In this document: positions 4,349 through 59,299 of the stretch, piece by piece
Position numbering within the stretch: position 1 is the first letter of the stretch
Layout of the letters: each line of letters begins with the position of its first letter
Virus record (IMG/VR): IMGVR_UViG_2576861193_000004
Coordinates: 32,001 to 96,000 of that record
Source: a virus
Taxonomy: Duplodnaviria > Heunggongvirae > Uroviricota > Caudoviricetes
DNA: 64,000 bases
Direction: 5' to 3' (one strand)
The notes under the pieces: model-generated
What the model was told of the DNA's origin: nothing
What the model saw: only the letters and a program-made list of their open reading frames with translations
Databases searched by the model: none
Made by a program: the position numbers and the translations under genes

Positions 4349-4440
4349 GTTGAATATGCTCCTTGATTTGGCGGGCTATCCTTGCCCGCCATTAAGTATA
4401 TACTTACCTATTTTTACCGATATAAAATTTTTTTCCACCA

Positions 4441-7400
4441 TCACAGACGGCCAATTCTTACTCGTAAGACGTTGTTATCGTCATAAACGTCAATCCGCTG
4501 ACCATTTATAACCAATCGCCCATTGCCGCCGCTATTACCGTTGATCTCCAGCGTTCCATTTTTGCCGAACCGCCATCCAGATCTACCGCTAACAAAATTG
4601 GTAGATTGCAGATCGCCTACTTTTGCATTGGTGATTGTGCCATCCTTGATATACGCTCCATTCATATAGGCGATACTGTTTTCGATAACAAATGGCGTTG
4701 TGATCTTCCCGTTAACAGAGTTGACCAAACCAAACCTGTCCGCCTGAACCAAAAACTGAGATAGCCCAGTGGTGTCAATACCAAGCGCAATACCGGCAAC
4801 ATACTTCTGCCCTCCGCTCGTTGAAGTCTCCATTTTCAACGTCCACGCGGTTGATACTTTTTTGTTGGTATCAGCAATAGCTGTTGCCTGCTGTTGAATT
4901 GTCGCGGTATTTCCATCCACCTCTGCTTTCAGAGTATCGATTCGCCCACTCAGAGCATTATCTGCCTGCGTTCTCGCTGTCGTTTCAGTTGTTACCGCCG
5001 CGGAAATGTTGGCTGCCGTTTGAGACTCTAAGTTTGTGATTTGAGTCGCCAATGCAGCATCTTGCTCTGTACGCGTTTTCGTTTCGGTTGCTACAGCCGC
5101 TTTAATATCCTCTTTGTATTGAGAGGTCAGCTTGGTGATCTGAGACGACAACGCCGAGTCAGCATCAGTTCGAGCCTGCGTTTCAACTGCAACGGCCGCA
5201 CTAATATCTTTCGCTGTCTGTGCTTTTAAACTTGAAACCTCTTTTGTTAAAGCGGTATCACCATCTGCACGAGCCGTTGTTTCTCTGGCAAGAGACGCCT
5301 CGAGATCATTAGCTTTTGCTGTAAGAGACGTAATCTGGGTAGACAATGCACTATCGGCATCAGTCCTTGCTTTTGTCTCTACAGCAACCGCTGCGGCAAT
5401 ATCAGTTCCGGTTTGTGCTCGCAGGCTGTTAATTTCTCGTGAGAGCGCCTGGTCAGCACTTGCCCTGGCCTCCTGCTCCTGAGTGATGGCAGCGGATATA
5501 TCACCGTCAACCTTTGACTGAAGCTGGTTTATTTGTTTGGCTAACGCAGAGTCCCCGCTTGCTCGAGCCTCCTGCTCACTACGTATTGCAGCAGAAATAT
5601 CATCATCAACCTTTGCCTGAAGTTGGGTGATCTGGCTTGCCAGAGCCGAATCTTCCGTTGCTCGGGCTTCTTGCTCTTCCTTAATAGCTGCGACGATATC
5701 GTTGCTTACTTTCGACTCAAGCTGAGTGATCTGTGTCGTCAGAGCTTCATCGGCAGATGTACGAGCCTCCTGCTCTGTACTAATCGCCGCGCTGATATCT
5801 CCTTCAAACTTAGATTGCAGCTGAGTGACACGCTTTGCCAACGCTTCATCGCCATCGGCACGAGCGGTGGACTCTTCCAGAATACTGGCCTTAATGTCTT
5901 CGCCAATTTCTACGCGAATTTCCTCAACCTTCGTGGCCATTGCAGACATATCATCAGCAAAGGTTTTCTGTGTTGTTGCGATCTTCGCGTTATTGACCAT
6001 CTGCTTGTGCTGGTCTTCATCTTGACGAAGAGCCAGGTCAATATTTGTTTTGGCTAACGCCTCAATGTTCGTAGTCAGTTCTGCACTGGCACGATCGACC
6101 TCTGCAACCGTCTTTTTCATTTCTTCAACGGCAGCGGAGCTTTCCTCTACCGTTGACTGCAACACTTCCAGTTGTTTAGCGTTTGCAGCATCGCCTTCAA
6201 CACGAGCCTCGCTTTCCTTAGCAATAAGAGCCGCCGCTTCATCTCTTGCAGCCTTTATTGCCTCGACTGTATTAGCGAGAGCTTTATCGTGTTCAGATAC
6301 GGTGTTTTCGATTTCAACAATTGCAGCATCAGTAGCATCAATTTTTTCAAACGCTTCATTGACCTTGTCGATCGTTGCCGAAACCTCACCTTTAAGCTCG
6401 GTTTGTGCGTTCTCCAAAGCATCGCTACGCTCGTTGAATTTTATTTCAAAATCCGCGAGGTTATCGCTGAACTGCTTATCTAATTCAGCTATATCTTCCT
6501 TAACGTCGTTTACCGACCCCTCCAAAGATTCGACGCTCTGGTTGATATGCTCATTTAACTCGTCAACTGCTTCTTGAGAGGCTTTGCTGTTGATGTCCTC
6601 AAGCAGAGCCTGACCAAGCTCGGAAGATGTAATTTTGCCAGTCAGGAACGACAGTACATCGCGAGTTGTCGCCTCTGTACCCAAGTTTGAGTTCGGAGGA
6701 CTTAACATACCTCGCTTGTTCGATGCTCGAACCCAGTAATACCACGTTTCGCTATCCCCAAGACCAGCATGTGTAAAGGTGGTGCTTGCAGACTCTGCGA
6801 TCAGTTTCGCCGTATCCAGATTGTTGGTCTGGGATGCGTAAACATTAATGTGATCAAGGTCTACCGAATCTGGATTAACCCAATTCAGTATCACATTACG
6901 ATAGTCTCCAACGGCCGTTAATGACGTTGGGGAATCCGGCGGTGTCATTGTGCCCAACACCTGATAAACGGTACTGATAATCTCTGTTTTTTTACCGTTG
7001 AATGAAACCGCATACAGCTGGAAGTCGTAGCGTCCATTCTCCGCGACATTAACGATTTCGTATTGCTCTTCGGTTACACGCGCCGATTGCCAGTTCGATA
7101 CATTGTTTTCATCAGAACGTCGCCAACTGATCCAATACTCTGGAGATTTCCCTTCCCATGTTGCAGTCAGTTTTACTGACAGGTTGCCAGGGCTTGAGAG
7201 ATAAGTCCCTTCGGTGATTTGCAAATTAGACGGCTTGGAGTAAGTCGGGTCCAATACCGTCGTATTCTGCGGGATAAGCGTTGCACCATTGTCGATTGCC
7301 TCATATTTAGACGGATTGTTCTCAACAGCGGTGATGTCAAAGCTACCCGGCGTTTCCCCCTGCGCGATGTTAACGATGCGAACGCGCATAGGTTCGAGAT

Positions 7401-9174
7401 CTGGTTCTGTAATAGTCCAGACGCCGTTCAAAACAGGCGTTTCAGCCGAAGACAGGGATTTTGAAAACGTAACTTTTGTTATATTTTCGCCAGTTTCAAG
7501 AACATCGCGTTCAACGATTTTGCCTTCATGATTCAGTATTCGAATAAAGCAGCCGCCTTTGGCTAACGACACCGGCGCATCGAGTGTGACGCTGTTTTTG
7601 GTAAACGCCACAATTCGACCTGAGTTACGTTTGCCTGCGCGATATTTGTTCTGAATCAGAACGGTTTCACCAGGCATCAGAAATGACGCGTCTAAGCCGG
7701 CAGTAAATGTAATTACATCCGACTCCATTCTGGCGGTATATAAAAGCCACAAACCAACTCGGTGAGCCTGCCCTCGGCTTGTACAGCCAAATGCTACGAC
7801 TTCTGTCTTACGCTCACCATAACGGCGCATTGCGTCCTGATCTTCAACGTACTCGATGTTTTGCTTATAACCGTCCTCCTTGTTGTTGTAGGTTACGAGC
7901 GCAACGGATGGGCGATCTTTACGCGCAGAACCTTTATAGGTAAACAATCCATCTTTGACGTTAGAGTTGGTAAACATCATTACCGGATCTGATGGGCTAT
8001 CCTGCATGATGTTAACCATGCCACCAGCCCAAAACACCATACCGCGGAATGCACCGGCAATATCCTGAATTAGTCGGTATGCGTCCTGTCGACTGGTGAT
8101 CTGCGTATTGATTGCAAAGCGTTTCTCTTTGCCACCAAAGCCATCATCGACCTCTTCGTCACAATATCGACCAATCTGGTACAACTGGCCAAGGTCAATC
8201 ATAGATTCCGACACATACTGACCAAGGCCATATCGAGCATTGGTCAGCAAATCAAAGAGAATCCACGCGGGGTTCGAAGAAGACAACAGCTTAAAAGTGC
8301 CATCCCATACCCCAGCGTAAGTGTTACTGGACTCGTTATAGTTTGAAGGTACTCGAATTTTTAGGCCACGCACCAGATAAGAGCGAGATGGCATGGTGCT
8401 GCCGAATTGCTCAGAGTTTACCTTCAATCCAACTAAAACAGAGTTTGGATAGTTCATCGGTGTATCGACAATTTCCCCGATTGAATCCACCCATGTATCG
8501 TTATAGAGATACTGGCTACTGTTATCATCGGTAATACGGACTACACGAACCTTGTATGCGCGTCCAGGCTTAGGCAGCTTCAGCTCGTAGCTACGGTAAT
8601 AAACGCCGGTCTTCTTTGCTGTTAGCTTAATGCCAACGCTTTTTTCACCTTCCGCGACCACATCTACAAATGTTGAGTCGCCATTTGCTATCTGGAACTT
8701 GTACTCAACAGTCGTACCGTTCGTGTCACCAGTTTTTTTATCTATGCTTCGCAAAGAAGGAAACTTCATGATGACACGAACCCGATCAGCTTCATCGTTA
8801 TCGATTGAAACCGTTACATAATGTGTTTTTTTTAACTGGATATTGACGGATTTAGGCGTTTCAACGAAATCAAAGCCAGACATTGGAGTCTGGTCTTGTG
8901 AACCGTCGCGAAAATCCCATGTGATTCCGCTGAAGTTGGAGGAACCGTCTTCATTTACAATCGGCAGATCGTCGATAAAAATAGATCTTGCGCCATTTAC
9001 TAAGCCGCCAATTACCCCTTCCCCAAGAAGATCGAGGATAGCGGCCATTGCACGAGAATTTACGGTATCGTCGGCTTCAACCGGTGTACGGCTGGAGCTT
9101 TTGCTGCTTTTTTTACCACCCGCACCGGCAATAAACAGCGGTAGCTTTTTCTTCTTGAACTGTTCCATGTTCAA
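4441..9174 (-). CDS. host specificity / central tail fibre protein, lambda J-like, 1577 aa
   Basis: N-terminal and central regions align by eye with lambda J (e.g. YPNSVLVGLKVNSEQFGS...VPSNYN; AFGCTSRGQAHRVGLWL; KYVAGIALGIDTTGLSQFLV). Contains a long inserted alanine-rich tandem-repeat coiled coil. Confidence 0.85.
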   Translation of the reverse strand: MNMEQFKKKKLPLFIAGAGGKKSSKSSSRTPVEADDTVNSRAMAAILDLLGEGVIGGLVNGARSIFIDDLPIVNEDGSSNFSGITWDFRDGSQDQTPMSGFDFVETPKSVNIQLKKTHYVTVSIDNDEADRVRVIMKFPSLRSIDKKTGDTNGTTVEYKFQIANGDSTFVDVVAEGEKSVGIKLTAKKTGVYYRSYELKLPKPGRAYKVRVVRITDDNSSQYLYNDTWVDSIGEIVDTPMNYPNSVLVGLKVNSEQFGSTMPSRSYLVRGLKIRVPSNYNESSNTYAGVWDGTFKLLSSSNPAWILFDLLTNARYGLGQYVSESMIDLGQLYQIGRYCDEEVDDGFGGKEKRFAINTQITSRQDAYRLIQDIAGAFRGMVFWAGGMVNIMQDSPSDPVMMFTNSNVKDGLFTYKGSARKDRPSVALVTYNNKEDGYKQNIEYVEDQDAMRRYGERKTEVVAFGCTSRGQAHRVGLWLLYTARMESDVITFTAGLDASFLMPGETVLIQNKYRAGKRNSGRIVAFTKNSVTLDAPVSLAKGGCFIRILNHEGKIVERDVLETGENITKVTFSKSLSSAETPVLNGVWTITEPDLEPMRVRIVNIAQGETPGSFDITAVENNPSKYEAIDNGATLIPQNTTVLDPTYSKPSNLQITEGTYLSSPGNLSVKLTATWEGKSPEYWISWRRSDENNVSNWQSARVTEEQYEIVNVAENGRYDFQLYAVSFNGKKTEIISTVYQVLGTMTPPDSPTSLTAVGDYRNVILNWVNPDSVDLDHINVYASQTNNLDTAKLIAESASTTFTHAGLGDSETWYYWVRASNKRGMLSPPNSNLGTEATTRDVLSFLTGKITSSELGQALLEDINSKASQEAVDELNEHINQSVESLEGSVNDVKEDIAELDKQFSDNLADFEIKFNERSDALENAQTELKGEVSATIDKVNEAFEKIDATDAAIVEIENTVSEHDKALANTVEAIKAARDEAAALIAKESEARVEGDAANAKQLEVLQSTVEESSAAVEEMKKTVAEVDRASAELTTNIEALAKTNIDLALRQDEDQHKQMVNNAKIATTQKTFADDMSAMATKVEEIRVEIGEDIKASILEESTARADGDEALAKRVTQLQSKFEGDISAAISTEQEARTSADEALTTQITQLESKVSNDIVAAIKEEQEARATEDSALASQITQLQAKVDDDISAAIRSEQEARASGDSALAKQINQLQSKVDGDISAAITQEQEARASADQALSREINSLRAQTGTDIAAAVAVETKARTDADSALSTQITSLTAKANDLEASLARETTARADGDTALTKEVSSLKAQTAKDISAAVAVETQARTDADSALSSQITKLTSQYKEDIKAAVATETKTRTEQDAALATQITNLESQTAANISAAVTTETTARTQADNALSGRIDTLKAEVDGNTATIQQQATAIADTNKKVSTAWTLKMETSTSGGQKYVAGIALGIDTTGLSQFLVQADRFGLVNSVNGKITTPFVIENSIAYMNGAYIKDGTITNAKVGDLQSTNFVSGRSGWRFGKNGTLEINGNSGGNGRLVINGQRIDVYDDNNVLRVRIGRL

Positions 9175-9185
9175 AAAATCCTTGT

Positions 9186-9779
9186 TTACATTAGCTGGTC
9201 AATCGTGATTGAAGAACTCACAACCTGTGAGCCAACCAGAATTTCCTCGCCATAGATAAGTTGTACTGGGTTGCCCTGGTTTTCTGTATTTTGAGGGCCG
9301 TCGAAATAATAAGAGTTCGAGTTATCTGCCTGTCTCACACTTTCGTTAGTGGCTTGCGGCGATATGATTTGTGATATGCCGCCCATCATCAGTGACAAAC
9401 CGAGAGGTGCTAAAGCAGGCATCACTACCGCCGATACAACCAACAAAGCGGCCCCTACTACCGTCTGAAACCACCCAAAAGCAGATCCACCGCTTCCTCG
9501 CGGAACAGGTGTAATGCGGATTTTGGCAATGTTGTCAGACTGCCCCATCATCTGATATTCACTTTCGTCAACAGACCACTTGTGGCCCTGTTTATTGGTG
9601 ATCTGGATGTGGTAACGGTCATAGGTTTTGATATTGCGCTTCATCCATGCTTTAAACCCAGGCTTGTTGGCCTCAATTAAATCCAGAGCCTGTTTTGTAT
9701 TGCGCACCTTTAGATGCCAGTGGCGGCCAAAATGTTTGGCCATAGGGCCGCCAAGCTGCACATGAACTAACTCAGACAC
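9186..9779 (-). CDS. tail assembly protein, lambda I-like
   Basis: Position between K-like and J-like genes, size about 200 aa, hydrophobic C-terminal segment. Confidence 0.55.
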   Translation of the reverse strand: MSELVHVQLGGPMAKHFGRHWHLKVRNTKQALDLIEANKPGFKAWMKRNIKTYDRYHIQITNKQGHKWSVDESEYQMMGQSDNIAKIRITPVPRGSGGSAFGWFQTVVGAALLVVSAVVMPALAPLGLSLMMGGISQIISPQATNESVRQADNSNSYYFDGPQNTENQGNPVQLIYGEEILVGSQVVSSSITIDQLM

Positions 9780-10591
9780 GTCTCATCTCCCTTGAGCAAG
9801 TCTCTGTGACGCAAGTGATGCGTCGTATGTTTCTGATACATTCCGCCGTAATAAGCACGACAACTAAGACGGTCGATCTGGTGATGAAGAATCATTCCAT
9901 CGCCGATATAAACCGCGCAGTGATCTGGCATTTTCCCGTATTGAATAAAGAAGACGTCCCCACGTTGAGGCTCTGTTCCAGGCGCAAGCCGTACCAATCC
10001 TTCGTTTCGGTAGTTCTGGTCGAGAATGTCGTTATCGCCGGTGTACCACGATGGAATATGCAGGTGTGCGTTCGGGTTTAGTTCGACGTTAAACTCACGC
10101 TTCAAATAGTCCCGACACAACATCCAGCAATCAAATACGCCAAATACATACGGTCTGCCCAGGTATGGCATTTCGAAACCATCAGGTGTGATCACATTCA
10201 TCTCGCTAAAATGGAAAGGGGCATCTCCCTCAACATTCTTGCGAATAGCCAGAATCATCCACGGAACTTCCGTCGTTTCGCAGCCTGCACGATCGGCATA
10301 AGATGCTTCTGCTGATTCATCAGTATGTGAATGCCAGATTGCGATAACATCACCCGCATCCTCTGCCGCCATAATGTCGTCAACGTGCATTACAAAAGTG
10401 TTCTGCGGGTTCTCCGAAACATTCCGCGCTTCCATAAAGCGATATTTGTCGCCATTAGTTCTAACCAGAAAGCCACACGCTTCATTAGGGTAGCGATTTA
10501 TGGCGCAGAGATAGATTTGCTGCATAACGTCAGAGCCAAGCTCAGGGATTGCTTTATTACCCATACCGCGTAGCTCCAATAAATCCGCCAA
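9767..10591 (-). CDS. tail assembly protein, lambda K-like (JAMM/MPN plus NlpC/P60 domains)
   Basis: JAMM metalloprotease motif HSHTDESAEASYAD (HxH-x7-S-x2-D), C-terminal Cys/His region, position after L-like gene. Confidence 0.8.
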   Translation of the reverse strand: MADLLELRGMGNKAIPELGSDVMQQIYLCAINRYPNEACGFLVRTNGDKYRFMEARNVSENPQNTFVMHVDDIMAAEDAGDVIAIWHSHTDESAEASYADRAGCETTEVPWMILAIRKNVEGDAPFHFSEMNVITPDGFEMPYLGRPYVFGVFDCWMLCRDYLKREFNVELNPNAHLHIPSWYTGDNDILDQNYRNEGLVRLAPGTEPQRGDVFFIQYGKMPDHCAVYIGDGMILHHQIDRLSCRAYYGGMYQKHTTHHLRHRDLLKGDETCLS

Positions 10592-11288
10592 AATGGATCA
10601 CACCGTCGGCAAAATAATTCCGACGCGCATTACAGGCGTCATAACGTTTTGTGCAGTAATCCGCACCAGACATAGACGTCTGCTGGTTATTTTTGTCGAA
10701 ATATGGACCGGTATAGCCGCATTCTGGCCCTCGGTATTTCCACGGGCAGGTGTTTTTAATGATCTGACGATACGGCAGTTGCACCCCCATCAAATCGAAC
10801 ACACTGGACAATTCAAACTCGACAACCTGATGAGTTTCGAGAGTTTTCTGTTCGATAAACCACATTTCATCCGGGAAATGTTGGTTTGGATCTGCTGTTG
10901 GGTTGCCGTCTTTAAAATTAACGGCATCGAGGAAGCGAGCCAGCGTCATCTTGCGAATAATGCGGCAGCCAACAAGATCGTCGTTCGCCTGAACTTCCGC
11001 AGAGACGGTTCCGGCAAAGTTCGATACCTGAATTTTTGGACGTGGCAACGTTCCCTGGCCAGTTTTGTCAAAGCCTGATGCTTTGATTGGCCACGGCTCG
11101 TATGTCACTCCTTGCCAGACGACCGGTTGCATCAGTTCGTTTGTTCCGGCGTGGAAGAATAGCTTCCCCCCTGAAGTTGTGTTCGACATATCCAATACGA
11201 ACAACTCAATGAGTGCAGAGGGAGATAAGCTCTGAATATCAGCTTTAATTCCCATTGTTTCATCCTTGAAATAAGTAGGCGCTAACAT
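10557..11288 (-). CDS. minor tail protein, lambda L-like
   Basis: Conserved L motifs (ARFLDAVNF, NTCPWKYRGPECGYTGP) and Cys-rich C-terminus. Real start probably the internal MGIKAD near 11255. Confidence 0.85.
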   Translation of the reverse strand: MLAPTYFKDETMGIKADIQSLSPSALIELFVLDMSNTTSGGKLFFHAGTNELMQPVVWQGVTYEPWPIKASGFDKTGQGTLPRPKIQVSNFAGTVSAEVQANDDLVGCRIIRKMTLARFLDAVNFKDGNPTADPNQHFPDEMWFIEQKTLETHQVVEFELSSVFDLMGVQLPYRQIIKNTCPWKYRGPECGYTGPYFDKNNQQTSMSGADYCTKRYDACNARRNYFADGVIHFGGFIGATRYG

Positions 11289-11337
11289 CCTGTCAGCGCC
11301 ACAATGATAGTAAATTAGTACTTACTTATCCAGATGC

Positions 11338-11673
11338 TTAAGCCTCAAATACTTGTCTGAATGTAGCAGTTAAGACACAGTACCCCTGATATCGCTTGAC
11401 CGTATGACTGTCACATACAACTACAATCTGCTTGCCTCTTGGATTAACCCAATAGAACGATTCAACACCTGATCGCTCAGTCAGGAAGTCATCGATTGCA
11501 TTAATTTCGTTGTATGATCTGGTAAAGGTTAACGACCATTCTTCTTTAATACGATTAAGACCTTGAGCCTGTCGCTGCTCGTAGTCATCACCAAAATTAA
11601 GTACCGTTACATTCGGTTTTACGCTCTTTTCAGATTCGTAATCTGGATACCAATTAAACGTTTGTCTTTCCAT
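11338..11673 (-). CDS. minor tail protein, lambda M-like
   Basis: 111 aa, directly downstream of tape measure gene, pattern resembling lambda M (FGDDYEQR...SFYW). Confidence 0.7.
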   Translation of the reverse strand: MERQTFNWYPDYESEKSVKPNVTVLNFGDDYEQRQAQGLNRIKEEWSLTFTRSYNEINAIDDFLTERSGVESFYWVNPRGKQIVVVCDSHTVKRYQGYCVLTATFRQVFEA

Positions 11674-11715
11674 CTCACATCCTTGTGAGACTGCCCCGGT
11701 CGGGGCAGTCGATAG

Positions 11716-14700
11716 TTAGTTACGTTGAGTGTTTGGGTTGAGTGATCCGCCAGGGCGTTTCTCTTGAGCGATAGTCTCAAGCGCGATTGCTTTCATCCGT
11801 TGAGCGGCATTGTTCCATATGCTTTCTGTATCGCCGGATTCTGTCGTGCTACCGTCACTATGGACGTTGATCTCAATTGATACAGGAGAAAGAACATTTC
11901 CGCCTCCACTCATACCATCGGTACTGAGCGTTACAGGGATTGTTCGGCCATCAGGCAATGGAACATACGCCTCATTCATAGAACCTTCCCCAAACAACGC
12001 TAATTGAGGCGAGTTAGCAATACCGCCTTTCTGGTATGCCCGGAGCGGGATCACGCCGTCTTTTCCGAATATTCCTCCATTTGCAAACTTCGGGATTGCA
12101 GGAATGCCTTTAGTTCCGTCAGCCACACTGCTGGTTGCGGTTTTAGCAGAGCTTGATGTCACGCTGTCGAAACCACCGCCAGCCCAAGCTGAAACAAGAC
12201 CAGATGCAACCGTTGCTCCAAAACTCAACCACTTATTACCAGAGCCGGAAGCATTAGCTCCAAGCATTGCAAACGCGGCAGACAGCGCGCCGGTAACAGA
12301 GCTTAGGTTCTGCATCGAGAAGATGGAGTCCTTCACTGCTTTTGTCTCAGCATCTTTGGCTTCAGTGCTATCAAATAGCCCTGATACCCAGCTACCAATC
12401 GCATTTGTTGCTGTGCCAATTGCGCTGGTGGTCTGCTGTGTTGTTTGCCCCAATCCAGTTACCGAACTGGACGTCTCCTTCGTGGCTTCTCCTACTGACT
12501 TGTCGCCGTTAACAGTGTTACCCATTCGTACACCTTGATTGGCAACTGCGGAAGCAACCCCGGTGAGCAAATTACCACTCTGTAAACTACCAGCTGCGGT
12601 GGTTCCCATCCCCAACATGTTCATTAGAGGCAGCGTGATCTGCGACTTCACGACCATATTGGTGATATCTTTCAAAATGGACTGAGATAGGCTGGAGAAG
12701 CTCATCTTCCCGTTAATAACGAAATCAGTCAGGACATCAGTTAAGCCACTAAACAAATCAGTCCAGGTGCTTTCGATCTGCTCTGCCAGGTTTTCGTATT
12801 CCAGTGCCAACTTCTGCGTCGCAGTCCCCGTCTCTTTAATAAGCGCGGTATTGCCAGCAGCAATCAGTTGATTGATTTTCTTTGTATAAAGCGCCACAAC
12901 TTTAGGATCAGACGCCTTATCACGAAGTTCTATCAACGCTTTGAGATTGCGGTTGTAGGTGTCTTCGAAATCAGCAACTTTCTCTTCACGAGACGGCGTA
13001 TAGCCAGCACTAATAATGGAATCCGACTCCGGTGCCCAGGTGGAGATCATTTGCTCAACATTGCGGCGATTAAACATCTCGCGATATTCAGGTGTCGCAT
13101 TTTTGAGGTCTTCAAGACGTTTTTTCGCCTTGTCGATCATCTCTTGAGTGATGAACTCGTTAGGAACCGCATTAGCCAAATCAGTCAGCGATTTCGTTGT
13201 ATCGCGAAGAGACTGATCAAACGATACCGTAGCCTTAGAGCTTTCACCCATTTGCCCCATAAGCTGATCGGCTTTGTCCAGAGCCTTCTGGTATCCGGCT
13301 GCCAGTTTCTGTTGCGCTGCCTGTTCCTTCTTGGCCGCACGCTGCGAGGCGTTAGCTGATCGTTGGGCTGCTTTCTCGGCTGCTGCTGCATCCTGTTCAC
13401 GAGCTTTAGTCAGTGCGGCAATGGCTGCGGCACGCTCTTCATCGCTCATTTTCTCCAGAGAGCTGGCACTGGATGCTTTCTGCAAATTAAGCTGCGTCTT
13501 GAGTTGTTTAGGCCCAATAATCGGCTTACCTTCGAAGTCCATCATCGGAGTGCCGTCAGGCAAAGTACGTTGATAAGTCGCAGAATCCATCTGGTTTCGC
13601 ATATATTGCGCCAGCGCCTTCTGAGCTGCTTTATCAGTTGTACCTAACCCCAGAACAGTCCCCTGGTTTGACATTACGCCCTTACCAGTTTTGGCCGCGT
13701 TATCTCTCTCGAACTCTGCCTGAGTCAGTTCCTGAGCGACGACTTCCAAATTCTCCTGATAACCACGAATACTGCCTTGCAGTTTCTTGATCTGCTCGGT
13801 GTTTCCTTCCTTTTTCGCTTTTTCAAGCTGATCATTAAGAGTGGCTATTTGCCCCTCGACAGCATTCTTACGAGAAGAAAGTGAATCAACCAGTTTTTGC
13901 GCAGGCTCCAGATAGCTTTTGTTTACCGTTTCACGTAACGGTGCCAATAGTTTGTTCTTTTCGTCATCAGAAAGTGAATCGTCATCATTGATTTTTTGGA
14001 TCTTCTCCAGAGCCTCTTGACGAGCTTTAGCGAATGTTGCCGCAAAGTCTCTATTCTCTTCCCGTATTTTCTCTATCTGTGATTCTGCCGCATCTTTTGC
14101 AAGACGTTTGGCTACAGCAATGTCTCCGCGTTCAATTGCCCCAGTAGTTTTATCGCGTTTCTTACGAAGGTCATTTAGCTCATTTTCTATACGCTTACGT
14201 TCATCCTGATTAATCTTTACTGTAGTTCCGGCCATACCCGGCCCATAAACCACCTTTTCGCCAGATTTTAACTCTTGTTCCTTTTGCGTGATTTGTTGCT
14301 CAAGACGCGCTTTATACTCCGCCATTTGTGCACGTTTGGCCGCTGTCATCGCTTCTGGTATTTTCCTAATCTCGTCAACGACCTTTGAAGTTTCGCTGCG
14401 GAGCATGGTCATGTACGTGATTAGGCCAGCAACAGCTACAGTGGCAACTGTAAATGCTGCCCCTATAGGGTTTGCTGCAATGAACGCCGTTAATCCAGCA
14501 AAAGCGCCTTTAAGCCCCGTAATCGCCCCACGGATGGCGAAAATAAGAGAGGGGATCGGAGCCAGCCCCATACGTGCCGCACGATTGAATCGAGTTACTG
14601 CTGTAGCGCCGAGGTTAAATGGAGTCTGTATGGCGGTCGCCATCGTGGCAAAGGTGCTAACCATCTGGCTGCCTGCGCCAACTACCCCCATGATCCCTGC

Positions 14701-16296: not shown

Positions 16297-16552
16297 ATAT
16301 TTGCATCAGTTGCTCTTTGGCGTCAGGGTCTGCCTTATCCTGGCTTGGATCGTAGACTTTATCTGTTACGACTGGTCTTCCAATCCTGAGTTGCAAACCC
16401 TCCATGAACGCCTTCACAGCCTCGCCATCCGCCTGGGACGCACGAGCGACTTGTAAGTTGCGGACATCCTCTTCCGCACGCAGACGGTCTATATTGCGAC
16501 TGAGCATCCAGAACATCGTGAGAGGAACGTTCAGTAGCTCTAATGGCGACAC
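16283..16552 (-). CDS. tail assembly chaperone, T-frame segment (possible G-T frameshift product)
   Basis: Small ORF between G-like gene and tape measure gene, overlapping the tape measure start. Arrangement as in lambda G/GT. Confidence 0.4.
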   Translation of the reverse strand: MSPLELLNVPLTMFWMLSRNIDRLRAEEDVRNLQVARASQADGEAVKAFMEGLQLRIGRPVVTDKVYDPSQDKADPDAKEQLMQIFGRG

Positions 16553-16632
16553 GGCGTAGTGAGCAACTACACGACTGAAATAGAATCCGAGATCTATTGA
16601 GACGGTCCTTGTCCCGGATTCATCGCGGGAAA

Positions 16633-16950: not shown

Positions 16951-17011
16951 GGTTTAAATCCTTTTAAACTCATACAGAGGCCCATCCATGGGCCTCTTGG
17001 GTTATCACAAT

Positions 17012-17794: not shown

Positions 17795-17832
17795 TCATTG
17801 CGCTAATAGTAAGTATATACTTACCAATTGAG

Positions 17833-22287: not shown

Positions 22288-22312
22288 CTATCAATTCCCT
22301 TTGATTTAGATG

Positions 22313-48625: not shown

Positions 48626-49857
48626 GCGAGTTGAGTTATCTGGAAAAATTGCTGGATGGGGTTGAGGTTGAGTGGTTGCCATTGGGGAAACTAGGTGAAT
48701 TAGTTCGTGGAAATGGATTGCCTAAGTCTGATTTTACCGAATCTGGGGTTCCTGCCATACACTATGGTCAGATATATACTTTTTACGGATTATCTACTGA
48801 AACAACAAAGTCATTTGTTTCCCATGAAACGGCGAAGAAGCTTAAAAAGGTTAACTCTGGTGATGTTGTTATTACTAACACAAGCGAAAATTTTACTGAT
48901 GTTGGTAAGGCGCTTGTTTATCTAGGTAAAGAGCAAGCTGTTACTGGTGGCCATGCAACTATTTTCAAGCCAAATAGCACTATTATTGGGAAATACTTTG
49001 CCTATTTCACGCAAACGGATTCTTTTGCAAATGAGAAAAGGAAATACTCCAAGGGAACTAAAGTAATTGATGTGTCTGCATCGGATATGGCGAAAATTAT
49101 TATCCCTATCCCCTGTCCGGAAAATCCCAAAAAATCCCTTGCTATCCAGTCTGAAATCGTTCGGATTCTGGACAAATTTACTGCACTTACCGCTGAGCTT
49201 ACCGCTGAGCTTACCATGCGTAAAAAACAGTACAACTACTATCGCGACCAATTGCTGAGTTTTAAAGAAGGTGAGGTTGAGTGGAAAACTTTGGGAGAAG
49301 TGGCTCAATACTCGAAAACAAGAATTAGTTTCGAACTACTTGATGAAAGGAATTATGTTGGCGTAGATAATCTGCTGCAAAACAGAGCAGGAAAATCATT
49401 ATCTAATCATGTACCCACATCAGGTAAATTAACGGAGTTTATACCTAACGATATACTGATTGGGAATATCCGCCCATATTTGAAAAAAATTTGGCAAGCA
49501 GATTGTATCGGTGGAACAAATGGCGATGTATTGGTTATTCGTTGCATAGATAGCTCAATAAATACCAGATATCTATATCAGATTTTGGCAGATGACAAAT
49601 TCTTTGAATACAACATGCAGCATGCTAAAGGAGCAAAAATGCCGCGTGGCAGTAAAGAGGATATAATGAAATACCCAATCCCTGTACCGCCACTCACCTT
49701 GCAAGCTCGCATTGTCGAAATACTCAACAAATTCGATACCCTGACAAACTCCATCACTGAAGGTCTTCCGCGTGAAATCGAATTACGCCAGAAACAATAC
49801 GAATACTACCGTGATTTACTGTTCAGTTTCCCAAAACCTGAAACTGTCAGTAATTAA
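48622..49857 (+). CDS. hsdS: type I restriction-modification specificity subunit, type IC-like
   Basis: Two target-recognition domains separated by a central conserved region carrying the TAELTAEL repeat. C-terminal YYRDLL repeat of the conserved motif. Overlaps hsdM stop. Confidence 0.9.
49186..49209 (+). repeat. 2 x 12-bp tandem repeat CTTACCGCTGAG encoding TAEL-TAEL in HsdS
   Basis: Perfect tandem duplication inside the hsdS central conserved region. Confidence 0.9.
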
Positions 49858-49978
49858 TTGACCATTGCTACCGACCGGGCCACCTTAACACCCGGTCTGT
49901 ATATAGACTATTTTTTACGCGCCGGAAGTCACTCTTAACGCCCTTCCGGCCCTTGCCAGGCGGCACAAAGGATGCGCT

Positions 49979-52900
49979 ATGACTCATCAAACACACACCA
50001 TTGCTGAATCCAATAACTTTATCGTCCTTGATAAGTACATCAAAGCTGAGCAAACAAGCGACAGCTACCAGAGCGAATCGGACCTGGAACGTGAACTGAT
50101 TCAGGACCTGCGGAATCAGGGTTATGAATTTATTTCCGTAAAATCACAGTCGGCAATGCTGTCCAATGTTCGGGAACAGCTTCAGAGCCTCAATGGTGTG
50201 ATGTTTAATGACAGCGAGTGGCGGCGCTTCACGGAGCAGTATCTGGACAATCCCAGCGATGGTATTCTGGATAAGACCCGTAAAATCCATATCGACTATA
50301 TCTGCGACTTTATTTTTGACGACGGGCGTCTTGAGAACATCTATCTGATCGATAAAAAGAATCTCATGCGCAACAAAGTGCAGATTATCCAGCAGTTTGA
50401 ACAGGCAGGTTCTCATGCTAACCGTTATGACGTCACGATCCTGGTTAATGGCTTGCCTCTGGTGCAAATCGAACTGAAAAAGCGCGGCGTGGCGATTCGT
50501 GAGGCTTTCAACCAGATACATCGTTACAGCAAAGAGAGTTTTAACAGCGAAAATTCCCTGTTTAAGTATCTGCAACTGTTTGTCATTTCTAACGGCACCG
50601 ATACCCGTTATTTTGCCAACACCACAAAGCGCGATAAAAACAGTTTTGACTTCACCATGAACTGGGCGAAATCAGACAACACGCTGATTAAAGACCTCAA
50701 AGACTTTACCGCTACCTTTTTCCAGAAACATACCCTGCTTAATGTTCTGGTGAACTACAGCGTGTTTGACAGTAGTCAGACGCTACTGGTGATGCGACCG
50801 TACCAGATTGCAGCTACCGAACGGATCTTATGGAAAATCAACAGCTCCTATAAAGCGAAAAACTGGTCTAACCCCGAAAGCGGTGGCTTTATCTGGCACA
50901 CCACTGGTTCCGGTAAAACACTGACCAGCTTTAAAGCCGCGCGTCTGGCAACTGAACTGGACTTTATTGATAAAGTCTTCTTCGTGGTCGACAGGAAAGA
51001 CCTCGATTACCAGACCATGAAGGAATATCAGCGTTTTTCGCCAGACAGCGTCAACGGCTCGGAAAATACCGCAGGTCTTAAACGAAATCTGGATAAGGAC
51101 GATAACAAAATTATCGTCACCACTATTCAGAAACTTAATAACCTGATGAAAGCAGAAAGCGACCTGCCTGTATACAATCAGCAAGTGGTGTTTATATTTG
51201 ATGAATGCCACCGCAGCCAGTTTGGAGAAGCGCAGAAAAACCTGAAGAAGAAATTCAAACGCTATTATCAGTTTGGTTTTACCGGCACCCCTATTTTCCC
51301 GGAAAATGCCTTAGGCTCAGAAACGACCGCCAGCGTATTTGGTCGTGAATTGCATTCGTATGTAATTACCGATGCGATTCGTGACGAAAAAGTGCTCAAA
51401 TTCAAGGTGGACTACAACGATGTGCGGCCACAGTTTAAGTCTTTAGAGACAGAAACTGACGAGAAAAAACTGAGTGCGGCTGAAAATCAGCAGGCGTTTC
51501 TTCATCCCATGCGTATTCAGGAAATCACGCAATATATCCTGAACAACTTCCGCCAGAAGACTCACCGTACTTACCCCGGCTCCAAAGGTTTTAATGCCAT
51601 GCTGGCAGTAAGCAGCGTGGATGCCGCGAAAGCCTATTACGCGACGTTTAAACGGTTACAAGAGGAAGCCGCTAATAAATCTGCTACCTATAAACCACTG
51701 CGTGTTGCGACAATCTTCTCCTTTGCCGCCAATGAAGAACAAAATGCCATTGGTGAAATTTCCGATGAAACTTTTGATACCAGCGCAATGGACAGCAGTG
51801 CTAAAGAGTTTCTTGACGCTGCAATTCGTGAGTATAACAGCTATTTTAAAACTAACTTCAGCACCGACAGTAACGGTTTTCAGAACTACTATCGTGATTT
51901 AGCCCAACGGGTTAAAAATCAGGATATCGATCTGTTAATTGTCGTTGGGATGTTTTTAACCGGCTTCGACGCTCCAACATTGAACACGCTATTCGTCGAT
52001 AAAAACTTGCGTTTTCACGGCCTGATGCAGGCATTCTCCCGTACCAACCGCATTTATGACGCTACTAAAACCTTCGGTAACATCGTCACTTTTCGGGATC
52101 TGGAACGCTCAACCATTGATGCCATAACGCTGTTTGGTGATAAAAATACTAAAAATGTGGTGTTAGAAAAGAGTTATGCAGAGTATATGGAAGGCTTTAC
52201 TGATGCTGCTACAGGTGAAGCTAAACGCGGCTTTATGGCAGTAGTTTCAGAACTGGAACAACGGTTCCCTGACCCTGCCAGTATTGAAAGTGAAAAAGAG
52301 AAGAAAGACTTCGTTAAACTGTTTGGCGAATACCTGCGTGCCGAGAACATCCTGCAAAACTATGATGAATTTGCCACGCTGAAAGCCCTGCAACAAATCG
52401 ATCTTAGCGATCCTGTTGCGGTAGAAAAATTCAAAGAAGAACATTATGTGGATGATGAAAAGTTCGCTGAATTGCAAACGATTCGTCTCCCTGCTGAACG
52501 CAAGATTCAGGATTATCGTTCTGCCTATAACGATATTCGTGACTGGCAGCGCCGCGAGAAAGAAGCTGATAAAAAAGAAAAATCAACCACTGACTGGGAT
52601 GACGTGGTTTTTGAGGTCGATTTGCTGAAGTCTCAGGAAATAAACCTGGATTATATCCTTGGACTGATTTTCGAACACAACAGACAAAATAAAGGCAAGG
52701 GCGAAATGATCGAAGAGGTCAAACGCTTAATTCGTTCAAGCCTGGGGAACCGGGCGAAAGAGGGCCTGGTGGTCGATTTTATTCAGCAAACGAACCTGGA
52801 TGATTTACCAGACAAAGCCAGCATCATTGACGCGTTCTTTACCTTTGCTCAACACGAACAGCTACGTGAAGCAGAAGCGTTGATTAAAGAAGAAAATCTC

Positions 52901-53095
52901 AATGAAGAGGCGGCGAAACGCTATATTCGCACGTCTTTAAAACGCGAATACGCCACCGAAAATGGCACAGAATTAAACGAGACATTACCAAAACTTAGTC
53001 CGTTAAACCCGCAATATAAAACGAAAAAACAGACGGTTTTCCAGAAAATCGTCACGTTTATTGAAAAGTTCAAAGGAGTAGGTGGGCAGATATAG
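49979..53095 (+). CDS. hsdR: type I restriction enzyme endonuclease/translocase subunit
   Basis: 1038 aa with SF2 helicase motifs (TGSGKT, DECHRS, GFTGTP). Confidence 0.9.
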
Positions 53096-56268: not shown

Positions 56269-56516
56269 ACAACCACCTTAGTCACAACATGATCCTGAGT
56301 AACTGGATGAACTTGAGGTATCGCATCCACCGTCATCCCATCCAGAGTGACAGGACGCTCTACTGTAGTGGTGGTAATTGTCGTCGACGGAGGTGTGGTG
56401 ATGGATGAATCCGGCATCAAAAGGCTCTGACCGGCTGGTACGGTAATCGCTGCCAGAGTTGCCAAAATCACTCCGTAGGCCATTGGCTTCAGTCGATTTC
56501 GTTGAAAATTTTCCAT
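56265..56516 (-). CDS. small protein with hydrophobic segment and Thr/Pro-rich linker
   Basis: ATG 56516 with SD AAGGA at 8 nt. Translationally coupled to the 2-TM gene. Lies inside a longer alternative-frame ORF (56278-56772). Confidence 0.35.
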   Translation of the reverse strand: MENFQRNRLKPMAYGVILATLAAITVPAGQSLLMPDSSITTPPSTTITTTTVERPVTLDGMTVDAIPQVHPVTQDHVVTKVVV

Positions 56517-56914
56517 GAGAACTGTCCTTGTGTGTCCGGGTTTCACGCAACACACGAGAAGCGACGCTATTACGCACCTTCTCCATGCCTACTGTCGTGC
56601 CCAGATTAGCTATGGCGGTAGCTTGCGCATTAATGCGCTTCTCCAGTTCAAACACTCGTTCTTCCAGTTCCGTAAGGCGTGCGGAAACACGACCACTAAA
56701 CAGCTCGGTCAGCACCAGGCGAATTGAACGGGGACGTTTATTGAAAGAAGTGAAAGACGTTTGACGGGCCATGTGGATTCCATTCAGTGTCAGAAAGAGT
56801 TGCGGCTGGCCAAGCCAGCCGCCTTTTGGCGTTCCATCCTGGAACCGTACCTAACCGGTACTTCGTCATCCTGACGATTTATAAGATACCTGATTTATTA
56901 TAGTGGGTAAATAC

Positions 56915-57523
56915 TTACTTATCTTTTTGTGACAAAAACCCAATGTCATGCTTGTGAGGCATATCAGCTGCGGAATAGGCGGCGATCTTCGCCAGACGGT
57001 CACACATTTCGTTCTCGCGATGACCTGCATGGCCTTTAACCCACTTCCAGCGGACATTATGACGACTGGCGGCCGCGTCGAGACGTTTCCAGAGATCCAC
57101 GTTTTTGACTGGCTTCTTCTCAGACGTGATCCATCCGTTACGCTTCCAGCCTTTCATCCAGAGCGTCATGCCGTTTTTAAGATACTGGCTGTCGGAATGC
57201 AGGATCACGTTGCAGGGGTACTTCAGACGCTCCAGCGCAATCAGGGCGCCCATCATCTCCATCCGATTGTTGGTCGTGCTGTGAAAGCCCTCAGAAAGCT
57301 CGCGCTCTTCGCCTCGATACTGGAGAACGATGCCGTAACCGCCCGGCCCGCCCGGATTTTTGAGGCAAGAGCCATCACTGAATACTTTTACGGTTTTGAG
57401 CTGGGGATTGAACTCGACTACGGGGGTTTTGAAGTTGGTACGGGATTGCTGGTGGGTTTGGTATCTGGCTTTGGACTTCGTGCGGCAGCCAGTATGTTGC
57501 CGGGCTGGGGTCTTGGTCGTCAT
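56915..57523 (-). CDS. ribonuclease H (RNase HI family) with N-terminal basic extension
   Basis: RNase HI core motifs ([53 protein letters not shown]). ATG 57523 with SD GGAG; track start 57580 is GTG. Confidence 0.85.
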
Positions 57524-57591: not shown

Positions 57592-58117
57592 AATATTAAA
57601 AATTTTTTAGAAAAGAAAAATTACTTCCCAGAACAGGTTTTAATAAAACCTGAACTGAACGAACGAAGTGAGTGAAGTTCACCTCGAACGAAGTGAGAGG
57701 TTGTCTTTTCAGGTAATACTCTCCCAGGGAGGTGAGTACAAAATTACCTCACCAACCTGGTCGTTTCATAACCTGAAAAGTTATGACCTAAGTCTACTGC
57801 CAGCTTAGGCTTGGGAAGTTATGGATGACAGCACCCCAGAACCGAGATCTTCCCACACTTTATGAAGGGGAGTACTGGATTCAACCTCTCGAAACACTCC
57901 AGACTCGACAATCATAAAGTGACCCTTCTCTCTGCCCACTTTGGTTCCCCCTTCCCCAACCCCTAAACGGTGCCGGTTCTACGCTGGTAGTGAGCTTTTT
58001 TAAACCTGACGCCAGTGACGCTATCCCCCACCCATCAGGTCGAGCTGCCAAAAGTATCCGGAAGCGGATAGATTGTATCACTGGTTAGTGGTGTTTTGAA
58101 TGGTAAGTACTTACATA

Positions 58118-58348
58118 TTATATTGATTGATTAATTTCTCGCCCATGAAGCTGGACGTTCAGGGCAAACACCTCATTGATGAGTTCCCCTAACAGCTGCT
58201 CCACCAGCTCTTTGTGCTCGCCTGAATGAAGACATTTGAGCGACCATTCGTAGAGACTGAAAGCCTTATCGCGATCTTTCATCATGTCGCGCACTGTGGC
58301 CAGAAAATCGCTCTCAACGAGCGCTACGACGTTCGTCGGGTATACCAT
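58118..58348 (-). CDS. hypothetical protein
   Basis: 76-aa ORF downstream of the compound inverted-repeat element. Confidence 0.4.
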   Translation of the reverse strand: MVYPTNVVALVESDFLATVRDMMKDRDKAFSLYEWSLKCLHSGEHKELVEQLLGELINEVFALNVQLHGREINQSI

Positions 58349-58431: not shown

Positions 58432-58535
58432 GTCTGGGAGTTGTTTGGAAATCACGTCTTAAAAAGCCTGCGTCTGTATATATTAATAATTAGTACTTAG
58501 TTATTTATATATACGGAAGCAGGTTCTCAAACTAA
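58432..58535. promoter_or_regulatory. compound inverted-repeat element (copy 2), upstream of the 58118-58348 gene
   Basis: Same nested architecture and about 80 percent identity by eye to the 26808-26904 element. Confidence 0.65.
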
Positions 58536-58550: not shown

Positions 58551-59144
58551 TTACGCTGCCTTTTTACGTGGTCTCTTCTTCCTGACAACATTGGCAGGGT
58601 CATAACCAACCAGCTTTTTCATCACCGCCAGCGGTATTTTACTGATGGTGTGCCCAGCTTCCTGACAGTAGCCACGGAAGATAAGCAACATGCTGCCACC
58701 AGGGTTGATGTCTACTTCCACCAGCCCAAGTTCAACATCCGGCTCAACAAATGCCACGCGGCCACCTGACAAGATGACTGTTTCGTTTGCGCACTCAGCC
58801 GCACGCTCATACCACCGCGTATCGAGGGATTGTGGTATCAGCATGATCGTCGTCACTCCACGCGTCTGCTCGCGAATGGCCGCTTCTATCCAGGGGGTGA
58901 TTTTGGAGTAAGGCGGGTTAAGGAACGCCACAGTGCCAGGTTCTCCCCAACTGCACTTGAGCGCATCACGCTCAACACCGATAAAGTTCGGCAGGAGAGC
59001 ATTATCTTTGTTGCAGGCGACGTCCACATCGAACTTTACGCCTATGTAACGTTGGATGGCGACAAACAACCACTGCGGTGTGCGCCAAAGGTCGCGAAGA
59101 GAGGCATCACGCTCTCGCTTTTTGATTTTTTCGGCTGCGATCAT
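58551..59144 (-). CDS. DNA N6-adenine methyltransferase (phage Dam-type)
   Basis: Motifs DLWRTPQWLF and FLNPPYS typical of small phage N6A methyltransferases. Confidence 0.8.
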   Translation of the reverse strand: MIAAEKIKKRERDASLRDLWRTPQWLFVAIQRYIGVKFDVDVACNKDNALLPNFIGVERDALKCSWGEPGTVAFLNPPYSKITPWIEAAIREQTRGVTTIMLIPQSLDTRWYERAAECANETVILSGGRVAFVEPDVELGLVEVDINPGGSMLLIFRGYCQEAGHTISKIPLAVMKKLVGYDPANVVRKKRPRKKAA

Positions 59145-59299
59145 TACTTTACTCTGATAGGTAAATACTTACCTATTTTTTCATTTAATCCAACGGATAG
59201 CAAACAAAGAAGAACGCGCCAGATTCGCAAACGGGAAGCTCTCTGGCGCGTTTTATCGATGCTGGGTATGCAATGAGCTTACCCAGCGTCCTAAAGCTC

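Follow-up and report, generated by a model that had tools for sequence, protein, structure and literature searches.

Dispersed palindromes of SSU5-like phage-plasmids as candidate operators of an Xre-type repressor

Few phages are known to carry repressor-binding sites dispersed over the whole genome. Here we describe a family of palindromes in a 64,000-nucleotide stretch of viral DNA (positions 32,001 to 96,000 of the IMG/VR record IMGVR_UViG_2576861193_000004, hereafter the window), which belongs to an SSU5-like phage-plasmid, and in its relatives Salmonella phage SSU5 and the Klebsiella phage-plasmid pJN2-26 (pJN2). The closest documented analogue of these sites is represented by the stoperators of the Cluster A mycobacteriophages, read by repressors such as L5 gp71 and Bxb1 gp69 (PMC6550527). 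Cluster A phages are temperate, some of them extrachromosomal, and contain about 20-35 copies of the repressor site across both genome arms, mostly in short intergenic gaps; few of these copies are true promoter operators, the majority lie away from promoters and block elongation, and repressor and motif co-vary from one subcluster to another (PMC6550527). The palindromes described here are stoperator-like in that 20-35 copies lie in short gaps through the lytic genes (11 in the window, 30 in SSU5 and 31 in pJN2). However, stoperators are asymmetric 13-bp sequences, read by a monomer and oriented with transcription, whereas the sites of the SSU5 group are symmetric 20-bp palindromes without orientation, and their candidate reader is an Xre-type helix-turn-helix (HTH) protein expected to act as a dimer. 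The lytic derivative D29 keeps its stoperators after the loss of the repressor. SSU5, which has kept the sites and lost the candidate repressor, parallels D29 relative to L5.

Among enterobacterial plasmid prophages the closest analogue is the set of C1 operators of P1. The lytic functions of this phage reportedly lie in many transcription units, each with a copy of the C1 operator, so that the genome has upwards of a dozen scattered sites. These operators are 17-mers without symmetry (ATTGCTCTAATAAATTT) and are recognized by the large C1 protein, whereas the sites of the SSU5 group resemble them in neither sequence nor symmetry and have a small Xre-type HTH protein as candidate reader. On the other hand, the operators of Cro/CI-type regulators and of the controller (C) proteins of restriction-modification (R-M) systems are inverted repeats of 14-20 bp bound by HTH dimers, with an operator over the regulator's own promoter, as is the case here; the best solved-structure matches of the candidate protein (C.AhdI, C.BclI and 434 Cro) belong to this controller/Cro class. 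The half-sites of the P22 c2 operators resemble TAAG/CTTA, as in the palindrome described here. Classical immunity regions, however, hold 2-6 operators in one place, whereas about 25-30 copies are spread here over about 100 kb. The P1 Lpa late promoters and the T4 MotA middle promoters have a similar look, since a repeated element near a -10-like hexamer replaces the missing -35; those elements nevertheless stand at a fixed distance from the -10 and serve one temporal class, in contrast to the variable geometry and the early- and late-type genes found here. By sequence and symmetry our sites belong to neither the stoperator nor the P1 C1 family, but they plausibly work alike.

SSU5-like phage-plasmids (the pHCM2, pKpn, pSLy3, pMT1-related and Acinetobacter pABTJ2-like groups) are frequent among clinical Enterobacteriaceae and Acinetobacter and carry resistance genes. 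A 2024 review gives regulatory systems for P1, N15, VP882 and GIL01, and none for the SSU5 group (PMC11652158); in the literature searched we found no description of the motif, of an SSU5 operator or of immunity control in this group.

A conserved palindrome at the gene junctions of SSU5-like elements

Over long stretches the window shares 98-99% identity with Escherichia phages CMS-2020a (CP053388.1) and Cyrano (OV696614.1); its identity to SSU5 and to Klebsiella phage-plasmids such as pJN2-26 is about 81%. It comprises tail, head and packaging genes on the minus strand, a plus-strand block opened by a helicase gene, many small genes, a type I R-M island and the beginning of a nucleotide-metabolism module; about 10% of it is non-coding. 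The portal protein, used as a query, matched 966 plasmid records and retrieved relatives at about 50% identity. The distant relatives compared were an Acinetobacter plasmid, an Aeromonas plasmid, a divergent Klebsiella plasmid, Rhizobium phage RHEph10 and the lytic Pseudomonas phage nickie.

Randomly seeded expectation-maximization (EM) motif searches, run separately on the intergenic DNA of the window, SSU5 and pJN2-26, each converged on the identical top motif, a 20-bp palindrome of one fixed geometry composed of the halves ATAGGTAAGT and ACTTACCTAT (a consensus also written ATAGGTAAGTACTTACCTAT) with weak symmetric flanks. This consensus differs from the asymmetric 17-bp one of the P1 C1 operators. 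About one third of the intergenic regions carry the palindrome, and perfect copies of it are present in pJN2-26. In the window a symmetrised matrix gave 11 good sites (Table 1), comprising the ten recorded in the initial annotation and an overlooked copy at 23300-23319, which has the highest score in the window. The ten earlier coordinates all bear a real member of the family, with matrix starts at most 5 nt away, but their description as perfect or near-perfect copies was too generous: the strict pattern GTAAGTA-N0-4-TACTTAC occurs exactly only at 17809 and 38011 (2 matches vs 0.01 expected). The variable spacer implied by that pattern is wrong, as the geometry is fixed and it is the single copies that are degenerate. 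The spacer appeared variable because the sequence has a 4-nt periodicity (TAAG TAAG TACT TACT), and also because a few copies have degenerate right halves, whose orthologs keep the normal register. Weak matrix matches were seen at 46974 and, within coding sequence, at 51354, and the matches at 26842 and 58489 are parts of another, far longer palindrome.

A chance origin of the motif was excluded by shuffle tests. A matrix built from pJN2-26 only gave 13 matches of at least 14 bits in the window (0.30 expected; maximum of 3 in 300 shuffles), and GTAAGNNYTTAC with at most one mismatch matched 19 times vs 5.55 +/- 2.87 in dinucleotide shuffles, none of 100 shuffles reaching 19. The hexamer TACTTA was among the words most enriched in intergenic DNA, with 13 intergenic vs 10 coding occurrences although only about 10% of the DNA is non-coding. 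The placement of the sites proposed earlier, in intergenic DNA just 5' of minus-strand genes, was borne out: 10 of the 11 strong sites lie between genes or at the edge of one, and all 11 have a minus-strand gene start 10-130 nt downstream. Complete genomes contain 30 (SSU5) and 31 (pJN2) copies, about 80% of them intergenic. An equal frequency in coding regions and in unrelated genomes, which would have argued against the proposal, was not what we found, since the sites are largely non-coding and the exact 18-mer, present at 31 loci in IMG/VR, is confined to SSU5-like contigs, all of them related by blastn. The palindrome is indeed common to the structural and the nucleotide-metabolism modules, to which the complete SSU5 genome adds the replication and lysis modules. 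It is likewise a second operator-like family apart from the AACAAnTTGTT cassette, as had been suggested; the two never coincide and their anatomy differs.

The sites have no strand orientation. Forward and reverse matrix scores are similar, the consensus is symmetric, and the flanks mirror each other, with A-W-R before and Y-A-T after the palindrome; beyond these flanks the positional profile of the sites showed no -35 or -10 at a set offset. The possibility that TAAGTA were an asymmetric element, oriented with the gene and followed six nt later by a -10, was dropped, as both EM and the positional profile gave a symmetric site of 20-26 bp. In order to distinguish a DNA site from an RNA structure, the independence of the half-sites was evaluated at 13 mirrored position pairs in 62 sites from three genomes. 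Watson-Crick counts equalled the independence expectation at 13 of 13 pairs, and at pair 4/17 the A:C mismatch (13) was as common as A:T (14) or as G:C (14). Because the half-sites are independent and pairing is not maintained, the palindrome appears to be read as double-stranded DNA by a symmetric protein.

Positional orthologs were found for all 11 window sites in SSU5 and for 10 of them in pJN2-26. The 20-mer is a conservation peak, with 82% of its columns invariant (95% in the left core) vs 66% in the flanks, while the 15 nt just downstream of it are the least conserved (44-58% invariant). At the 23300 site a 29-nt block that includes both hexamers of the promoter-like match is invariant in three genomes, whereas the adjoining codons vary.

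The core GTAAG-NN-CTTAC is kept at the same junctions in the Acinetobacter, Aeromonas and divergent Klebsiella plasmids, at a portal identity of about 50%. The shared junctions are the helicase/ParB divergent region, which is orthologous in all lineages, the TerL/portal junction, the position after the capsid gene and that before the tail genes. Core counts were 21 in pJN2-26, 29 in Acinetobacter, 15 in Aeromonas and 17 in SSU5, vs about 3 expected in each, and the outer bases are lineage-specific (ATTAGTAAGCGCTTACTAAT in Acinetobacter, ATCAGTAAGTGTTTACTGAy in Aeromonas). RHEph10 (60% G+C) is without the GTAAG core and has another palindrome, written AATCAATATTGATT and gtcAATCAATATTGATTgac, in about 26 copies at orthologous junctions (e.g. 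112701, 106199, 110704, 35959 and 27456), often with a hairpin or terminator after it; we found no description of it in the literature searched. The TerL/portal junction bears the palindrome of its lineage in SSU5, pJN2, Kp72, Acinetobacter, Aeromonas and, with the different sequence, RHEph10. In nickie, which shares the backbone synteny, no repeated palindrome was found by EM, by matrix or by exhaustive palindrome counting, and the core count was 1 vs 2.75 expected. An old architecture with a lineage-specific sequence is the pattern that a co-evolving DNA-binding protein would produce. Together, these results identify a real, family-specific and conserved cis-regulatory palindrome.

Table 1. 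Palindrome sites of the window and two small genes considered as sources of a reader. Positions are those of the window; scores are from the symmetrised matrix.
Position	Strand	Sequence or product	Score (bits)	Gene context	Promoter-like match	Orthologs and remarks
4392-4411	.	ATAGGTAAGTATATACTTAA	22.9	43 nt upstream of tail-fibre gene (176-4348, minus)		SSU5 21937; GC hairpin next on minus strand
11310-11329	.	ATAAGTAAGTACTAATTTAC	21.0	21 nt upstream of minor tail gene (10557-11288, minus)	Site is spacer of TGGATA-17-TATCAT	SSU5 15589, pJN2 53621; conserved hairpin after it (11300-11278), kept via compensatory changes
17809-17828	.	ATTGGTAAGTATATACTTAC	21.8	Upstream of Ig-domain tail gene (17012-~17760, minus)	Site holds -10 of TTGAAT-18-TATACT	SSU5 9067, pJN2 47136
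21384-21403	.	GTAGATAAGTAGTTATCTAT	20.1	Between major capsid stop (21412) and intrinsic-terminator-like hairpin (21377-21361); 45 nt upstream of next gene		Palindrome-then-terminator order also in SSU5, Kp72, Acinetobacter
23300-23319	.	ATAAGTCAGTACTTACTTAT	26.9	Within portal gene 3' end, 99 nt upstream of gene 22313-23200	Site is exactly the 17-nt spacer region of TTGAAA-17-TATGAT; best sigma-70-like match of structural module, 10/12	
24807-24826	.	ATAGGTAAGTAATTATCTAA	20.7	TerL/portal junction; overlaps TerL stop codon, 10 nt upstream of portal ATG		
30099-30118	.	ATAAGTAAGTGATTACATAG	14.7	64-nt divergent region, helicase operon (plus, lysogen-on) vs ParB-like-to-terminase operon (minus, lysogen-off)	Site holds -35; TATAAT overlaps its edge	Weaker copy
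38011-38030	.	TATTGTAAGTACATACTTAC	18.8	Right after terminator, upstream of small gene (~37572-37967, minus)	Left half is -35 of TTGTAA-17-TAGAAT	-35/-10 pair kept in SSU5 (TAATAT) and pJN2 (TAGTAT)
56903-56922	.	ATAAGTAAGTATTTACCCAC	19.5	After RNase H-like gene, 130 nt upstream of gene 56278-56772 (minus)		SSU5 79904, pJN2 16842
58099-58118	.	ATATGTAAGTACTTACCATT	23.7	CYRAN_81 downstream	Site abuts -35 of TTCAAA-17-TACAAT (TG-extended)	Perfect 12-nt core
59157-59176	.	ATAGGTAAGTATTTACCTAT	26.6	12 nt upstream of adenine methyltransferase gene (58551-59144, minus)		SSU5 77651, pJN2 14621; pJN2 copy is a perfect palindrome
31726-32004	+	CYRAN_117 ortholog, 92 aa, ribbon-helix-helix-like sequence pattern		Just after helicase gene		Rival reader
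26908-27174	-	CYRAN_123, 88 aa				Candidate of the initial annotation; lysogen count 7.8, silent

The palindromes as candidate operators of a lysogeny repressor

The most likely binder of the palindromes is the Xre/Cro-type HTH protein encoded beside the integrase, CYRAN_45 of Cyrano, which is annotated as a 'putative repressor'. Profile clustering of all open reading frames (ORFs) revealed, in pJN2-26, Acinetobacter and Aeromonas, a small HTH protein whose gene adjoins that of an integrase and precedes cobT. Its homolog in the E. coli lineage, detected by tblastn at 57-59% identity (CP053388.1, 16146-16535), is CYRAN_45, and its gene lies outside the window; in RHEph10-like phages a homolog was detected by tblastn at about 33% identity. 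Six-frame profile searches, which replaced BLAST-level and greedy-ORF profiles because these were unreliable for the GC-rich nickie genome, detected the family in each of the five lineages with palindromes (E. coli, Klebsiella, Acinetobacter, Aeromonas and RHEph10) but not in nickie or SSU5. Thus the motif and the HTH family co-occur in five lineages and are both absent from nickie, the exception being SSU5, which has the sites without the HTH gene: SSU5 is without the segment of about 6.5 kb that contains the integrase and the putative repressor in pJN2-26 and the E. coli lineage, and in SSU5 the gap lies between a tRNA-Asn gene (42525-42596) and cobT (42761). The profile of the family matched Xre/Cro domains, which are palindrome-binding dimers (C.AhdI with E = 8e-4, then C.BclI, HipB and 434 Cro), and Pfam HTH_3 was matched by the Acinetobacter member above the cut-off (36 bits) and by the other members below it.

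The 5' region of the repressor gene itself has a copy of the palindrome. In E. coli and Klebsiella the promoter-like sequence TTTACA-16-TAATAT precedes the gene and the palindrome begins inside its -10; in the lineage of the window this copy reads ATCGGTAAGCACTTACCAGT, begins 30 nt 5' of the ATG and covers the predicted start site. A second, weaker copy is found in pJN2 over the -35 of the repressor promoter. Within the window, despite the scarcity of sigma-70-like matches in the structural module (9 vs 22.9 expected), 6 of the 11 sites coincide with a gene-strand match of this kind detected by a consensus scanner, in differing registers: the palindrome may be the spacer (23300 and 11310), hold the -10 (17809), hold the -35 (38011 and 30099) or abut the -35 (58099), whereas at the repressor gene it covers the start site. 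The promoter-like sequence described previously at 38011 was confirmed in this analysis. Such a variable geometry fits an occluding repressor rather than a positioned activator.

Transcript counts are available for a Cyrano lysogen (PMC9928086, S1 Table). Against a median of 9.8, CYRAN_45 reached 95.8, and the lytic genes preceded by a palindrome were at background level (5-17). At the divergent site the helicase gene CYRAN_118 (46) and CYRAN_117 (114), on its leftward side, were expressed, and the ParB-like CYRAN_119 (5.0), on its rightward side, was not (PMC9928086).

From these observations we infer the binding of the sites, the identity of the binder and its repressive effect, and we judge that on balance the palindromes are probably dispersed operators of the Xre-type lysogeny repressor of the element. 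According to this model, a dimer of the phage-encoded regulator would bind the palindromes as double-stranded DNA sites; in the plasmid-prophage state about 25-30 of them, dispersed among the lytic genes, would be occupied. The bound repressor would cover the -35, the spacer, the -10 or the start site of weak sigma-70 promoters and, at sites without an evident promoter such as the TerL/portal junction, it might be a roadblock. In this manner each unit of the structural, lysis, replication and nucleotide-metabolism genes would be silenced separately, and the repressor would limit its own synthesis via the site over its own start point. SSU5 is called virulent in a passage of PMC5427195, and the missing integrase-repressor segment offers a simple explanation for this lifestyle.

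Several observations weigh against this interpretation. Acinetobacter and RHEph10 show the autoregulatory layout only weakly and Aeromonas lacks it, and the recognition helices of the HTH proteins are similar in RHEph10 and in the enteric elements despite their different palindromes. About 30 good sites are kept in SSU5 without the HTH gene, which could mean another reader, and the ribbon-helix-helix (RHH)-like CYRAN_117 is expressed in the lysogen, adjoins a site and is retained by SSU5. Roughly half of the sites are without a recognizable -35, and no fixed -35 emerged in the positional profile. At two sites (21384, and nrdA in SSU5) a terminator lies after and not before the palindrome, an order not expected of a promoter-operator unit. 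The gene behind the 58099 site, CYRAN_81, had a count of 117 in the lysogen (PMC9928086), so not every site represses; moreover, silence in the lysogen is common to nearly all phage genes, and that of the palindrome-preceded ones is therefore weak evidence.

A broader proposal, which we put forward tentatively and rate at slightly less than an even chance, is that the superfamily of about 110-kb siphoviruses comprising SSU5, nickie and RHEph10 has an ancient distributed operator network, in which about 25-30 palindromes are fixed at the same junctions in elements of alpha- to gamma-proteobacterial hosts and their sequence is rewritten in each lineage together with a small Xre-type repressor. 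Such a network would correspond, in symmetric form, to the stoperators of mycobacteriophages and would both silence and insulate each lytic unit of a large plasmid prophage. A derivative that lost the repressor would be virulent, as is SSU5, and a lineage that lost the sites as well would be purely lytic, as is nickie. At the helicase/ParB site, repression of the lytic side may go together with permission or activation of the lysogenic one, comparable to a lambda-like switch.

If the operator model is true, it provides a cis-code and a named candidate repressor for the SSU5 group, the outer bases of the motif would predict immunity groups, and the virulence of SSU5 would be explained. The operator or the repressor would represent a simple handle to cure, induce or engineer these elements, and a symmetric Gram-negative example would join the few phages with dispersed repressor sites.

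Cyrano is induced by ciprofloxacin (PMC9928086). A stand-alone Peptidase_S24 protein (LexA/UmuD-like, without a DNA-binding domain), CYRAN_98, encoded at 45185-45574 on the minus strand of the window, is expressed about 15-fold above the lysogen background, and it may contribute to induction, since Cyrano is SOS-inducible and no cleavage domain is present in the candidate repressor.

Alternative readings of the sites

An opposite role, in which the palindrome is a positive promoter element through which a lytic-phase activator or an RNA-polymerase-directing factor recruits the host polymerase to promoters without a -35, in the manner of P1 Lpa and T4 MotA, is unlikely but explains several features. 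Many sites have a -10-like TATyAT over their right end and no -35, and they lie 10-60 nt before start codons, at several junctions directly after terminators. Conserved hairpins occur a few nt downstream, as for the 5' stem-loops of new transcripts. The virulent SSU5, without the HTH repressor, retains all its sites, and sigma-70-like promoters are otherwise depleted in the structural module, where 9 matches were counted (window 4001-24000) vs 22.9 +/- 4.1 in shuffles. However, the position of the palindrome with respect to the -10 and -35 differs by site, whereas activators normally need a fixed geometry, and the flanks are symmetric, the -10-like end being mirrored on the other side. Both early-type genes (nrdA, thyA, ssb, methylases) and late-type ones (portal, tail, holin) have sites in front of them. 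A transcript begun 7 nt past the right-end -10 at the TerL/portal junction would lack the Shine-Dalgarno sequence; one site lies over the start point of a good sigma-70 promoter, that of the lysogen-expressed repressor gene; and the lytic phage nickie, which would be most in need of such promoters, has none of these elements.

The operators might instead be read by CYRAN_117, the 92-aa RHH-like protein, in which case the HTH protein would serve the AACAAnTTGTT family or another function. We regard this as rather improbable. In its favor, expression of the gene is 12-fold above background in the lysogen, its operon starts at the palindrome-containing divergent region, and SSU5 retains both the gene and the sites; in addition, small beta-alpha-alpha proteins are syntenic after the helicase in all temperate gamma-proteobacterial members, and there is none in nickie. 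Nevertheless, homologs of CYRAN_117 are restricted to close relatives of E. coli, and no sequence homology was detectable between the enteric, Acinetobacter and Aeromonas counterparts. Their presumed base-reading beta-strand is wholly different (TTYCQVAL, LVRTSITL and IKRVTLEV) despite the common GTAAG core. The counterpart in RHEph10 is unrelated and not RHH-like, yet this phage has dispersed palindromes. The RHH fold itself is unconfirmed: the structure model had a pLDDT of 69.7, Foldseek gave no match, and CopG was matched only with E = 0.35.

Could the palindromes act in the RNA, as weak terminators, as processing or stability signals, or as translational operators by the ribosome-binding sites? 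The palindromic sequence, the A-tract before it and the T-rich flank after it are in agreement with a hairpin, as are the proximity to Shine-Dalgarno sequences and the excess of G:T (23) over A:C (6) at the inner pairs. This is nonetheless very unlikely, for none of the 13 pairs shows compensatory covariation; A:C and other mismatches are tolerated while the sequence of each half is kept. True hairpins in the neighborhood do show compensatory changes in the same alignments, as seen with the GC hairpins a few nt downstream of 17809 and 11310, which covary where the palindrome does not. The stem would be short and AT-rich, in contrast to the GC-rich stem and U-tract of an intrinsic terminator, and copies occur in divergent promoter regions, where there is no single transcript direction.

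KorB-type proteins use about a dozen dispersed palindromes, and the sites described here might similarly be centromere-like or silencing sites of the two ParB-like proteins encoded at 28733-30082, as are the KorB operators on plasmid RK2. The two ParB-family genes head an operon that begins at the palindrome-containing region. We assign this reading a very low probability: the ParB-like genes are conserved (34% identity) in nickie, which has no palindromes, and they are silent in the lysogen (CYRAN_119, 5.0; CYRAN_120, 9.5). Finally, a compositional or chance effect of AT-rich intergenic DNA, where AT-rich hexamers are generally enriched, or a selfish REP/MITE-like repeat without a regulatory role, is hardly credible given the shuffle tests, the recovery of the same sites with a matrix from another genus, the positional orthology across genomes diverged by about 50% with no sign of mobility, and the confinement of the exact 18-mer to SSU5-like viral contigs.

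Two further candidates were rejected. The 88-aa protein (CYRAN_123), put forward as the regulator in the initial annotation, belongs to a core family that is also detectable in Acinetobacter, in Aeromonas and, as gp154 (E 7.6e-5), in nickie, which has no such palindromes; hence its distribution does not track that of the sites. A phage sigma factor was discarded as the reader because a sigma-70-like gene is present in the Acinetobacter plasmid and RHEph10 and was undetected in the SSU5-like genomes, Aeromonas and nickie. This sigma-70-family gene lies between the gene for a CobS-like ATPase and dnaE (Acinetobacter plasmid 17898-18563; RHEph10 39826-40461), a position at which SSU5-like enterobacterial genomes have only a 67-aa ORF.

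Other repeats and accessory genes

The AACAAnTTGTT 11-mer starts in the window at 56012, 55283, 41760, 41709, 38902, 38418, 37515, 36751, 26778 and 26753. Its cassette is structured, with an extended -10 promoter (TGnGATAAT) followed after about 13 nt by GAAAACAAnTTGTTT and then by the Shine-Dalgarno sequence and the ATG, sometimes with a second copy 51 nt upstream. The cassette alternates with the palindromes along the genome, and the genes behind it are near background in the Cyrano lysogen. It seems to be enterobacterial-only, as the frequent palindromes of the Acinetobacter and Aeromonas relatives do not include it.

Long compound palindromes occur at about 26805-26905 and 58467-58523. They have the form CCTGCTTCyGTATATATAAATAA...TTATTAAATATATACrGAAGCAGG, with outer arms GGTCTGGG and CCCAGACC, and the first of them separates the 88-aa gene from that of the small terminase. 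Three copies are present in each of the SSU5 and pJN2-26 genomes, and a single one in Acinetobacter, where it lies upstream of TerS; the ends of the SSU5 record were cut inside one of the copies. These long palindromes are candidates for a packaging site or an origin.

The hairpins at 11278-11300 and about 17775-17805 (minus strand), situated just after two of the 20-bp palindromes, show compensatory substitutions across three genomes, and the loop of the former, ACAGGATGT, is invariant.

Scans of the small window proteins against Pfam and PHROGs were uninformative except for the stand-alone S24 peptidase and a protein of the FljA family (Pfam Flag1_repress, E 9e-81), a family of post-transcriptional repressors of phase-1 flagellin. 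The fljA-like gene, at 33882-34406 on the plus strand, is on an accessory island of 36-40% G+C within the low-GC block 32000-36000. The type I R-M system occupies 47063-53095 on the plus strand and comprises the methylase, specificity and restriction subunits; its genes are 95-97% identical to those of unrelated phages and plasmids, which indicates an accessory insertion.

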